A stretch of 5,439 nt of DNA, from the NCBI RefSeq assembly GCF_003334785.1, contig NZ_QOWV01000044.1; one strand, 5' to 3'. This document shows, in pieces, positions 1,527 through 3,305 of the stretch. The translations under genes and the position numbers were made by a program. The stretch is from Escherichia coli (GTDB lineage: Bacteria > Pseudomonadota > Gammaproteobacteria > Enterobacterales > Enterobacteriaceae). Every line of letters starts with the position of its first letter. The stretch's first letter is position 1. The notes below the pieces were generated by a model, which saw only the letters and a program-made list of their open reading frames with translations, had not been told where the DNA came from and ran no database searches.

Positions 1527-3305
1527 ATGCGTAACGGGAAATATGACGTTCTGAGTCCCCTGTATTCCGGTGAGAGGAGGGTGGCTTCACGACTGGAGAG
1601 TTTTCTGAATGATGACTGCCTTGTCTGGTACGATATCCCGGTGGGACGGAGAAACCGGCATCCGGATTTTGTCATTATTGACCCGGAGAACGGACTGGTA
1701 TTTCTGGAGGTCAAGGACTGGACGATTTCCACGCTGCGTGAGGCAAATCAGGAGCAGGTCACGCTGGAAACCGACGGTCTTCTGAAATCAGAAATAAATC
1801 CGCTGGTACAGGTTCGTCGTTATGCCTGTGATACTGTTAATGCCTTACCCTCAGACCCGTGCTTACGGCAGAATGACGGTCAGTATAAGGGACGACTGAA
1901 CTTGGCCTGGGCGTATGGTGTGGTGTTTACCCGCATTACCCGTCAGCAGCTGAAGACCCTGACAGGGAATGATGAGAATGCGGTGGAAAAGATTTTCCCT
2001 TCAGCACAGACAATCTGTCAGGATGAAATGACGCAGTCTGTTTTACCTGAGGTATTCCGGCAAAAAATTGCCGGGATGTTTACCACGGGGTTCAGAACCC
2101 GGGTGACACCCCGGATGAGAGATATTCTGCGCGCCCATCTGTTTCCTGAAGTGACCGTGAAACAGAACTCACAAATCAAAATCATGGATATCCAGCAGGA
2201 GATTCTGGCCAGAAATATTGGTGACGGACATCGTGTCATTCATGGTGTGGCCGGTTCCGGAAAAACCATGATTCTTTTGTTCCGTTGCCTTTACCTGGCT
2301 GAGACCACACCCGGAAAGATTCTGGTGTTGTGCTACAACATTACCCTGGCCAGCTATCTGCGGGAATGCATTGAGGCCAGAGGGTTGACGTCACGGGTTA
2401 CGGTATCTCATTTTCACAGCTGGTGTGCCTCAATGGTAAAACGCCACGGTATTCAGGTGACGGCAGACAGAAAAGAATATCCTGAGAAATGCTTCAGTGT
2501 ACTGGAAGAGGCTGTGAACAGCGGAAAAATCACCCGAACCGGATATGATGCTGTGCTCGTGGATGAGGGGCATGATTTTGACAGTCGTTGGCTGGCCCTG
2601 ATTGCCCGTCTGTTTGATAACGCATCCCGTTCACTGCTCCTGATGTACGATGATGCCCAGTCCATTTACCGACGGGAGCGGGCCCTGAACTTTTCTCTGG
2701 CCAGTGTGGGGATTCAGGCACAGGGACGTACTTCTGTTCTGCCGGTCAATTATCGTAATCCGAAACGCATTCTGCACTTTGCTTATGCATTCTCCCGCGA
2801 GTATTTTGAAAAACATCAGAACCGTGAAATACCACTCGTTCAGCCACAGGCGGGTGGTGAAGAGGGCACAGAGCCGGAAATCCTGCGTTGTGCTTCTGAA
2901 CGTGATGAAGCCAGACAGGTTGCAGACTGGCTGGAGAAGCGCCATGCCCTGTGCGGTCACTGGAGTGATATGGCTGTTCTGTGTCCGGCAGAGTTTTCAG
3001 TGAAACAACTGAAAGAGGTTATGACACAACGCGGGATACCGTTTGCCACCTGCTTTGACAGTGAAGGTAAGAAGGCATACTCGCGACGTAAGGATGTGGT
3101 GCATTTACTGACATACCAGAGCAGTAAGGGGCTGGAGTTCCCGTATGTGGCGGTTATCAATGCTTCTTTCGTTCCTTCTGGTGTAGCGGATGAGTCTGAA
3201 GTAATTCCGGTGCTTTATGTGGCGTTTACCCGGGCAACCCGTGAATTACTGGTGACCTGTTACCGTGAAAACAGTATCAGTCGTCACCTTGAGAATTTTG
3301 CATAA
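1527..3305 (+). CDS. NERD (PD-(D/E)xK nuclease-related) domain fused to a UvrD-like superfamily-1 helicase, 592 aa
   Basis: Long uninterrupted ORF with an ATG at 1527. N-terminal region: SGERRV...HPDFVIIDPENGLVFLEVKDW, with PD at 1662-1667 and E-V-K at 1707-1715, matching the NERD / PD-(D/E)xK pattern. Helicase motifs: motif I Walker A GVAGSGKT (2244-2267); motif II Walker B VLVDEGHD (DEGHD at 2562-2576); motif III-like YDDAQSIY; motif IV-like NYRNPKRIL; motif V-like LTYQSSKGLEFPYVAV; motif VI-like LYVAFTRATREL. The order and spacing match UvrD/Rep/PcrA-type SF1A helicases, but the protein is too short to carry a large 2B insertion. The Shine-Dalgarno sequence is weak (GAGA about 10 nt upstream). 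The start lies 9 nt after the stop of the tpsB remnant. Confidence 0.85.
   Translation: MRNGKYDVLSPLYSGERRVASRLESFLNDDCLVWYDIPVGRRNRHPDFVIIDPENGLVFLEVKDWTISTLREANQEQVTLETDGLLKSEINPLVQVRRYACDTVNALPSDPCLRQNDGQYKGRLNLAWAYGVVFTRITRQQLKTLTGNDENAVEKIFPSAQTICQDEMTQSVLPEVFRQKIAGMFTTGFRTRVTPRMRDILRAHLFPEVTVKQNSQIKIMDIQQEILARNIGDGHRVIHGVAGSGKTMILLFRCLYLAETTPGKILVLCYNITLASYLRECIEARGLTSRVTVSHFHSWCASMVKRHGIQVTADRKEYPEKCFSVLEEAVNSGKITRTGYDAVLVDEGHDFDSRWLALIARLFDNASRSLLLMYDDAQSIYRRERALNFSLASVGIQAQGRTSVLPVNYRNPKRILHFAYAFSREYFEKHQNREIPLVQPQAGGEEGTEPEILRCASERDEARQVADWLEKRHALCGHWSDMAVLCPAEFSVKQLKEVMTQRGIPFATCFDSEGKKAYSRRKDVVHLLTYQSSKGLEFPYVAVINASFVPSGVADESEVIPVLYVAFTRATRELLVTCYRENSISRHLENFA

Follow-up and report, generated by a model that had tools for sequence, protein, structure and literature searches.

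In a 5,439-nucleotide stretch of Escherichia coli DNA (RefSeq assembly GCF_003334785.1, contig NZ_QOWV01000044.1; the whole stretch is referred to below as the window), we analysed the longest open reading frame (ORF), which runs from 1527 to 3305 on the plus strand and codes for 592 amino acids. Domain and alignment data indicate that the product is very likely a single-chain protein of an active enzyme family, in which a NERD nuclease of the PD-(D/E)xK type is joined to a compact superfamily 1A (SF1A) helicase. Judging from its full-length profile match, the protein almost certainly belongs to the C3a187 "NERD+UvrD" family. This copy of the helicase gene is a chimera, made by a deletion at a microhomology that has given it the start of a toxin-activating lysine-acyltransferase gene.

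Domain architecture of the protein

The ORF and the domains it encodes are as follows.

1527..3305, plus strand: chimeric NERD-UvrD ORF, 592 amino acids and a stop codon.
1566..1841, plus strand: NERD (PD-(D/E)xK) nuclease core, residues 14-105 (Pfam PF08378, independent E-value 3.4e-10), with GE at residues 15-16, D47 at nucleotides 1665-1667, E61 at 1707-1709 and K63 at 1713-1715.
1842..2171, plus strand: NERD extension/linker, residues 106-215, with the conserved blocks GYGVV..NITR and R..LFPE.
2172..2726, plus strand: RecA-like domain 1A, residues 216-400, with the Q-like motif MDIQQE (220-225), Walker A GVAGSGKT (240-247, nucleotides 2244-2267), Ia LVLCYN, II DEGHD (346-350, nucleotides 2562-2576) and III DDAQS (375-379).
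2727..3302, plus strand: RecA-like domain 2A, residues 401-592, with motifs IV NYRN (408-411), V SSKGLEF (532-538) and VI YVAFTRA (564-570).

Pfam assigned UvrD-helicase/AAA_19 to residues 223-383, UvrD_C to 404-508 and 518-580, and UvrD_C_2 to 525-576. Conservation was read from two alignments, one of the window protein with 51 full-length relatives (52 sequences, 26-98% identity) and one of the native form with 69 relatives (70 sequences). In both, D47 (within HPDF) is invariant, and E61 and K63 (within LEVKDW) and the GE at 15-16 are at least 90% conserved. G240, G243, G245, K246, T247, D346, E347, Q378, N408, R410, G535, T568 and R569 of the helicase part are invariant or nearly so in the 52-sequence alignment, and SF1 motifs I, Ia, II, III, IV, V and VI are all present on the two RecA-like domains. 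A first-pass annotation, made from the letters alone, had proposed a NERD domain with its PD...ExK residues and a compact SF1A helicase with motifs I to VI; both proposals were borne out, and the nuclease residues, whose loss it had named as a point to check, proved conserved on alignment.

AlphaFold2 models of the window protein (predicted local distance difference test, pLDDT, 88.4; predicted template modelling score, pTM, 0.83) and of the native form (pLDDT 93.2, pTM 0.90) agree on the domain layout. The extension/linker is confidently modelled, and its PADLOC match is to C3a187 only. The nearest folds are Rep, UvrD, AdnAB, AddAB and RecB. Alignment with PcrA falls into three blocks: motifs I-Ia against PcrA residues 22-104, motifs II-IV and the first half of 2A against 219-398, and motifs V-VI against 553-621. 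Domain 1B of PcrA (104-219) is matched by only 34 residues in the sequence alignment; in the models the 1B insert has shrunk to ~47 residues (296-342), and a single helix stands in its place. Domain 2B (398-553) has no counterpart, with only ~15 residues between the modelled strands 506-509 and 525-529, in agreement with the earlier reading that a 2B domain is absent. With neither of the regulatory domains 1B and 2B, the protein is a minimal SF1A motor of natural origin and would be useful for studying the coupling of UvrD-type motors to nucleases.

Assignment to the C3a187 family

The best PADLOC model was PDLC01087, "C3a187" NERD+UvrD (E 7.1e-138, 458.9 bits), which aligned residues 10-591 with profile positions 13-556 of 559; the N-terminal 205 residues alone match it at E 3e-35. 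The first-pass annotation had been unable to place the protein in a named family, and this end-to-end match supplies one. C3a187 goes back to cluster 187, "NERD+UvrD", represented by Dole_0738, in a survey of genes beside type III CRISPR-cas cassettes (Shah et al. 2018, PMC6546367). Bioinformatic catalogues have covered this architecture and this family since 2018, both are in PADLOC, and the protein is abundant in public E. coli genomes. It is no new category; it is an uncharacterised single-chain nuclease-helicase and a candidate defence protein. What is new here is the deletion-chimera 5' end, the probable mis-annotation of the native start, and the ancestry of the locus within a type VI secretion system (T6SS) cluster.

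The family label implies that the protein could be an accessory of type III CRISPR-Cas systems, as the best model stems from a screen beside type III cas cassettes. This association is based on 3 occurrences. We found no cas genes within 12-15 kb of four E. coli loci (L001, L006, L007 and L100), nor in the plasmid, metagenome and sampled neighbourhoods examined; no neighbour is conserved in 80 loci from 80 species, and Pfam finds no CARF/SAVED-type sensor domain. A CRISPR accessory role is therefore extremely improbable.

Homology searches gave no housekeeping orthologue. No NCBIfam model scored above its cut-off, and the protein lies far below those for PcrA (69.9 bits against 911), Rep (58.1 against 951) and UvrD (47.9 against 1144), so that orthology to the housekeeping helicases UvrD, Rep, PcrA, HelD or RecB was rejected; the distinction from UvrD and Rep drawn in the first-pass annotation stands. 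RefSeq names the protein "3'-5' exonuclease", "NERD domain-containing protein" or "nuclease-related domain-containing DEAD/DEAH box helicase", and no experiment is attached to these names in the sources found.

Relatives are numerous. HMMER, run exhaustively over 1.84 billion representatives, returned at least 556 clusters (50% identity) at E<=1e-30, and among the 150 clusters listed most are ~600 amino acids long and matched end to end. In species-representative genomes, relatives were confirmed in at least 488 of the 600 pattern matches listed; those listed are mostly from Gamma- and Betaproteobacteria, with others from Verrucomicrobiota, Nitrospirae, Chloroflexota and cyanobacteria.

Three further candidates were set aside. 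The "NERD" system DS-26 validated with DefensePredictor (WP_054626965.1, 532 amino acids, Upx-like) is a different protein, and accessions of the NERD+UvrD family are absent from the DefensePredictor supplements. ZwsA is an unrelated multidomain NERD RNase. A phage origin was rejected, as PHROGs returned generic helicase families only.

The window copy is a deletion chimera

The best complete-genome match of the window is the locus of E. coli TW10722 (L001). BLAST aligned window positions 1-1574 with L001 15001-16574 and positions 1566-5367 with L001 18688-22489; the two blocks overlap at 1566-1574, and 2113 bp of L001 are absent from the window. The missing segment comprises most of the acyltransferase gene and a frameshifted GIY-YIG nuclease gene.

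1527..1565, plus strand: first 13 codons of the chimeric ORF (MRNGKYDVLSPLY), the start of a toxin-activating lysine-acyltransferase gene (HlyC/CdiC-like).
1566..1574: deletion junction; the microhomology consists of TCCGGTGAG in the acyltransferase gene and TCCGGGGAG in the helicase gene.

The junction microhomology reads TCCGG(T/G)GAG, with identity at 8 of the 9 positions. Window positions 1527-1565 are identical to L001 16527-16565, the start of WP_001243912.1; the ORF begins at the acyltransferase ATG and enters the helicase gene in frame at Ser-Gly-Glu. The first-pass annotation had noted that the ORF starts 9 nucleotides after the stop codon of a tpsB remnant, which is correct, because the start of the ORF is that of the acyltransferase gene. 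Its further suggestion, that the helicase gene had replaced a TpsA cargo gene, does not hold: relatives carry the acyltransferase gene at this place, and a microhomology deletion made the fusion. The position behind the tpsB remnant is accidental, and the locus offers a lesson for annotation, in that a seemingly intact gene is a deletion chimera.

The junction is spanned in none of the 5426 complete E. coli genomes. Several assemblies and samples yield the exact 592-residue protein, which is encoded on at least 9 draft or Logan contigs. The draft assemblies L002-L005 match the window at 100% identity over the 5' junction, and across both deletion junctions, the one at the 5' end of the helicase gene and a second one in an IS66 element downstream, the same holds for four independent draft or Logan contigs. 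Because these four contigs agree across both, the deletions are real, and assembly artefacts were rejected. The remainder of the gene differs from TW10722 by ~1 nucleotide in 3.8 kb, and the deletion is therefore recent.

Loss of the native start and N-terminus

Members of the family share the N-terminal motif M-A-x-Φ-I-P...T-x-G-E (MAxΦIP...T), with M1 in 69, A2 in 64, P6 in 53 and T16 in 50 of the 70 aligned sequences. RefSeq begins the native gene at the ATG at L001 18682 (581 amino acids). The motif is restored only with a start at the ATG at L001:18640, 14 codons further upstream (MAKLINVSASTEERMTSGERRV, 595 amino acids), and this 595-residue form is on record (P0002) with 301 member sequences. 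The family alignment thus favours ATG 18640, and the RefSeq start is probably mis-annotated. The TW10722 segment L001 18640-18684 is among the sequence deleted from the window.

What the window copy lacks is the native promoter region with the start codon, together with 16 N-terminal residues that are both conserved and structured (MAKLINVSASTEERMT). In the native model these residues include a strand at 3-5 and a helix at 8-14 (pLDDT ~83), whereas the chimeric N-terminus is disordered (pLDDT ~50). In promoter scans, which are weak consensus tests and give a hint only, no plus-strand promoter-like site was found in window positions 400-1527, and the sole site found lies in the deleted native upstream region. 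The first-pass annotation had called this the only long gene of the window that looks fully intact. It is indeed the longest ORF, but it is not intact: 13 non-native codons stand at its head, and 16 conserved residues, promoter and start are gone. The native 5' end has been replaced by 13 unrelated residues and by acyltransferase start signals behind a dead tpsB gene. The catalytic core of the chimera is untouched; expression and full activity of this copy are doubtful.

The window copy may consequently be dead or crippled in effect, its ORF surviving since the deletion is recent and in frame. We regard this as a serious possibility, somewhat on the doubtful side. The deletion took promoter, ribosome-binding site, start codon and a conserved N-terminal strand and helix; a structured terminus gave way to a disordered one; the gene upstream is a 5'-truncated pseudogene without a plus-strand promoter-like site at 400-1527; the neighbouring genes are all decaying; and ~1 nucleotide of difference from TW10722 in 3.8 kb would have left no time for decay. 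Against this, the in-frame fusion has left all catalytic motifs in place, the occurrence of the same arrangement on at least 9 contigs of several assemblies and samples indicates that the lineage persists, read-through transcription from upstream is conceivable, and N-terminal tags are often tolerated.

Distribution, selection and T6SS ancestry

The gene is present in 1048 of 5426 complete E. coli genomes (19%) and full length in 616 (~11%); in O157:H7, O111:H8 and E2348/69 an IS66 element interrupts it. Further copies are on IncF plasmids and on replicons of Vibrio, Pantoea, Ralstonia and Nostoc. Between E. coli alleles the Nei-Gojobori ratio of nonsynonymous to synonymous substitution rates (dN/dS) is 0.10-0.13, and it is 0.04-0.21 in every domain; the plasmid allele L009 was left out, as an indel shifted its codon alignment out of register. 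A dN/dS of ~0.1 indicates a functional gene under purifying selection.

The closest homologues outside E. coli, in Cedecea neteri (L015 1-11040) and in another relative of the Enterobacterales clade (L095 605-13357), lie inside intact T6SS clusters with the co-directional order tssM-tssA-tssF-tssG-tssJ-tssE-[NERD-UvrD]-ImpA_N/VasL. Identity to these is 58-66% for the NERD-UvrD protein and 43-49% for ImpA_N/VasL. The helicase gene is contiguous with ImpA_N/VasL in 473 complete E. coli genomes, and in L001, L006 and L100 the T6SS gene is a pseudogene and the T6SS genes upstream are gone.

This raises the question of a T6SS-linked role in the Enterobacterales clade (as effector, accessory factor or regulator), of which the E. 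coli locus would be a leftover. The placement between tssE and ImpA_N/VasL in the intact clusters agrees with such a role, as does the adjacency kept in the 473 genomes despite the divergence of both proteins. However, the T6SS genes have disappeared or become pseudogenes in E. coli, and the helicase gene remains intact at dN/dS ~0.1; contexts elsewhere are unrelated (PAPS reductase/IbrB genes, IncF and Vibrio plasmids); no T6SS neighbours recur in the 80 more distant loci; and Pfam finds no PAAR, VgrG, Rhs or MIX marker in the protein, nor is an adjacent downstream immunity gene conserved. We consider a T6SS-linked role very unlikely. Because the helicase gene stays intact as the T6SS decays, and other alleles sit elsewhere, we take the adjacency as a sign of common island ancestry and not of a functional dependence.

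Genomic neighbourhood

We compared 80 loci from 80 species by crude ORF calling, all-against-all BLAST and clustering; the ORF calling was simple, and in 11 loci antisense ORFs that overlapped the focal ORF displaced it. No conserved partner emerged: the most frequent neighbour families are found in 8 loci at most, and no family keeps a fixed position. The gene therefore stands alone, with no dedicated partner.

Other E. coli alleles adjoin pairs of PAPS-reductase and IbrB(ParB)-like genes and a trio of TerB-N, ATP-binding and DEAD-helicase genes (L006/L100 16374-18229 and 19678-25502; L007 10510-14515), and in L007 the two genes of the PAPS-reductase/IbrB pair flank the helicase gene. Copies on conjugative plasmids sit beside toxin-antitoxin and restriction-modification genes (RelE/ParE, a DNA methylase and an HNH endonuclease gene), an IncF plasmid copy is near umuDC and an SOS-response peptidase gene, and in a metagenomic lineage (L011/L012) a PLD-DEAD-DUF3427 protein and a PHP-SMC ATPase are encoded next door.

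Several observations on these surroundings may be added. The PAPS-reductase/IbrB pairs and the TerB-N trio are candidate conflict systems. In TW10722, a complete Qat system (KAP NTPase, QatB-like, QatC and QatD), a group II intron, and a SLATT gene accompanied by a truncated gene for a nucleotide-binding domain are found ~6 kb downstream of the locus (L001 26745-31304 and 31857-32559). The island, which is rich in insertion sequence (IS) elements and of defence type, also carries a CBASS-like fragment and a DEAD helicase. Directly upstream of the native helicase gene, TW10722-like strains carry the frameshifted gene of the GIY-YIG nuclease family (L001 17213-18447), which is absent from the contexts of the other alleles.

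Comparison with known systems

The first-pass annotation likened the protein to Nhi and Gabija. The one-chain nuclease-helicase architecture of Nhi is indeed shared; by homology, however, the protein is not of the Nhi type, and it was not placed in Gabija either. Nhi of Staphylococcus epidermidis (SERP2475) is, like the window protein, a single chain of ~600 residues with an N-terminal PD-(D/E)xK domain followed by an SF1 helicase. The 606-residue Nhi has 3'-5' exonuclease and nickase activities, and it is sufficient for anti-phage defence, for which both of its activities are required (10.1101/776245). Its helicase is DUF2075/PF09848 of the SF1B type (Dda/Upf1/DNA2-like), and it has a C-terminal glyoxalase-like domain, whereas the window protein has a UvrD/Rep-like SF1A core and matches PF09848 only at an independent E-value of 0.012. 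The 25 highest-ranking PADLOC hits include no Nhi model; AbiO reaches just 4.5e-6 on residues 337-423. Membership in Nhi was rejected on helicase type, given this PF09848 score and best sequence and fold matches to UvrD/Rep. By analogy, Nhi is the best functional counterpart; the resemblance is one of architecture and not of family membership.

GajB of Gabija is a UvrD-like SF1A ATPase and the next-best PADLOC family (E 7e-22). The match covers parts of the motor only (for example residues 323-515), and GajB lacks a NERD domain. No GajA neighbour (an OLD-type ATPase-TOPRIM protein) is encoded in the window or in L001, and none is conserved over the 80 loci. With the GajA partner missing and the GajB similarity partial, Gabija was rejected.

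With UvrD, Rep and PcrA only ~350 residues align; here 1B is shrunken, 2B is absent, a NERD domain is added, and the gene is accessory and patchy. RecB, AddA and AdnAB are multi-subunit enzymes with a C-terminal nuclease, whereas the window protein has its nuclease at the N-terminus and its gene has no conserved partner. The "RTasNERD-Hel" protein of the UG34 DRT system (PADLOC PDLC03813; Mestre et al. 2022, PMC9226505) likewise has an N-terminal NERD domain and a C-terminal helicase, and the similarity is weak yet significant (whole protein, E 1.8e-14; NERD part, E 7e-4). It is encoded beside a reverse transcriptase, and the E. coli gene has no such neighbour. The definition of C3a187 itself rests on adjacency to type III cas genes, and the E. 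coli gene is without cas neighbours.

Proposed function and its alternatives

Rep, UvrD and PcrA structures and the logic of RecB and AddA provide a model in which the motor tracks along single-stranded DNA in the 3'->5' direction. We propose that the protein is an ATP-driven single-chain nuclease-helicase, with an N-terminal NERD nuclease and a UvrD-type SF1A motor of two RecA-like domains. The motor would load on single-stranded or nicked DNA and translocate 3'->5' in the manner of Rep, UvrD and PcrA, and the NERD domain, which adjoins 1A at the predicted exit of the tracked strand, would cleave that DNA. The logic of RecB, AddA and Nhi would thus operate in one polypeptide without a partner protein, and its outcome may be the restriction of invading or replicating foreign DNA, from phages or plasmids.

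The candidate-defence reading is reasonable because the gene is accessory, patchy and standalone and sometimes lies beside defence-like genes; moreover, Nhi provides a precedent, as a single protein with a PD-(D/E)xK nuclease and an SF1 helicase can confer immunity (10.1101/776245). We put an anti-phage or anti-plasmid role just short of an even chance, and the explanation as a whole (nuclease-helicase enzyme, C3a187 membership, chimeric copy and defence role taken together) at about even. More tentatively, and somewhat below even, C3a187 may be a widespread standalone anti-phage or anti-plasmid system that no current defence catalogue calls as a system, with a mechanism distinct from those of Nhi and Gabija, in which a 2B-less SF1A translocase would feed DNA to the N-terminal NERD nuclease; a rarer variant would include a functional tie to the T6SS cluster in the Enterobacterales clade. 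Should the family prove to be an immune system, the defence repertoire of E. coli would gain a common nuclease-helicase encoded by one gene, as the gene is intact in 616 of the 5426 complete genomes, is found in many other Proteobacteria and on conjugative plasmids, and is annotated only as "3'-5' exonuclease" or "NERD domain-containing protein".

Several points weigh against the defence explanation. In PADLOC, C3a187 figures solely as a candidate accessory of type III CRISPR systems, with 3 occurrences (Shah et al. 2018, PMC6546367), and the four E. coli loci have no cas genes nearby; the full-text literature yielded no experimental study of any NERD+UvrD family member. Polarity and nuclease substrate are extrapolated from homologues, and the protein, lacking 1B and 2B, may act chiefly as a translocase or unwind DNA only weakly. 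The promoter scans of the chimera give no more than their hint, and the co-directional position inside a T6SS cluster in Cedecea and L095 could hint at another role. Twenty immediate neighbours were sampled from distinct genera. About 5 of the 20 resemble defence proteins (Dsr2-type SIR2, IteS-type peptidase, Avs4-type STAND, Eco8/PtuA-type ATPase and HipA), all with matches under the NCBIfam cut-offs and in a small sample without a control, and about 8 are housekeeping genes (prpF, a heptosyltransferase, a histidine kinase, miaA, gatA/gatB, a GGDEF protein and purA). In a Conchiformibius metagenome-assembled genome (L053 6440-11349) the homologue is inserted between gatA and gatB, and in an uncultured lineage (7 contigs; L096/L097 ~10001) it divergently adjoins dnaA-dnaN-gyrB-gyrA; both sites are insertions of a single gene into the core genome, counter to a simple defence-island picture. 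As regards the defence-island neighbourhood that the first-pass annotation proposed to examine, some neighbours are defence-like, but no neighbour family is conserved over the 80 loci and many neighbours are housekeeping genes. The pattern fits a mobile single-gene cassette that is often but not always near defence genes.

The same contexts bear on another explanation, that the protein is an enzyme of repair, recombination or replication restart, or a maintenance factor of mobile elements, acting as a compact AddA/RecB-like end processor or a flap or fork nuclease-helicase. Its closest folds are Rep, UvrD, AdnAB, AddAB and RecB, some homologues lie among core genes (dnaA-dnaN-gyrB-gyrA, miaA, purA, gatAB), and the IncF plasmid copy is near umuDC and the SOS-response peptidase gene. 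However, the distribution is patchy (19% of E. coli) with frequent inactivation by IS elements, synteny is not conserved across the 80 species, scores are far below every housekeeping equivalog model, and helicase-nucleases of this kind normally have partner subunits, none of which is conserved here. We therefore hold a repair role unlikely.

Flanking features of the window

The genes on either side are decayed, as the first-pass annotation had read them, with a TpsB remnant to the left and an IS66-interrupted ImpA_N/VasL T6SS gene to the right.

1146..1517, plus strand: remnant of a TpsB (ShlB/FhaC/HecB) transporter gene, C-terminal part; context, outside the system.
3398..3676, plus strand: hypothetical ORF of 92 amino acids in the interval between the helicase gene and the T6SS remnant (WP_032215403.1 in L001).
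3731..4733, plus strand: truncated T6SS ImpA_N/VasL (TagA-like) gene, interrupted by IS66; Pfam ImpA_N/VasL on its 357-residue product, a pseudogene in RefSeq.
4734..5439, plus strand: left part of ISEc23 (IS66 family), with tnpA at 4819-5244.

The tpsB gene upstream of the helicase gene is a 5'-truncated pseudogene, and RefSeq lists its TW10722 equivalent (L001 16146-16517) as "incomplete ShlB/FhaC/HecB family protein". The 92-residue ORF is specific to E. coli and frameshifted in L006 and L100, and it is no conserved partner; it is absent from Cedecea and L095, where the gap measures 35-157 nucleotides. The ImpA_N/VasL product of the window is 43% identical to the intact 462-residue homologue of L095 up to nucleotide 4738.

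Scans of the window for Rfam families and repeats gave nothing relevant. A DUF4222 gene (63 amino acids, 234-425 on the minus strand) flanks the locus. Within ISEc23, an internal deletion of ~1.2 kb at ~5364-5367 joins tnpB to the DDE transposase gene, and a fused TnpB/DDE product of 262 amino acids is called in L002 (5781-6569); this fusion has therefore probably left the ISEc23 copy immobile.

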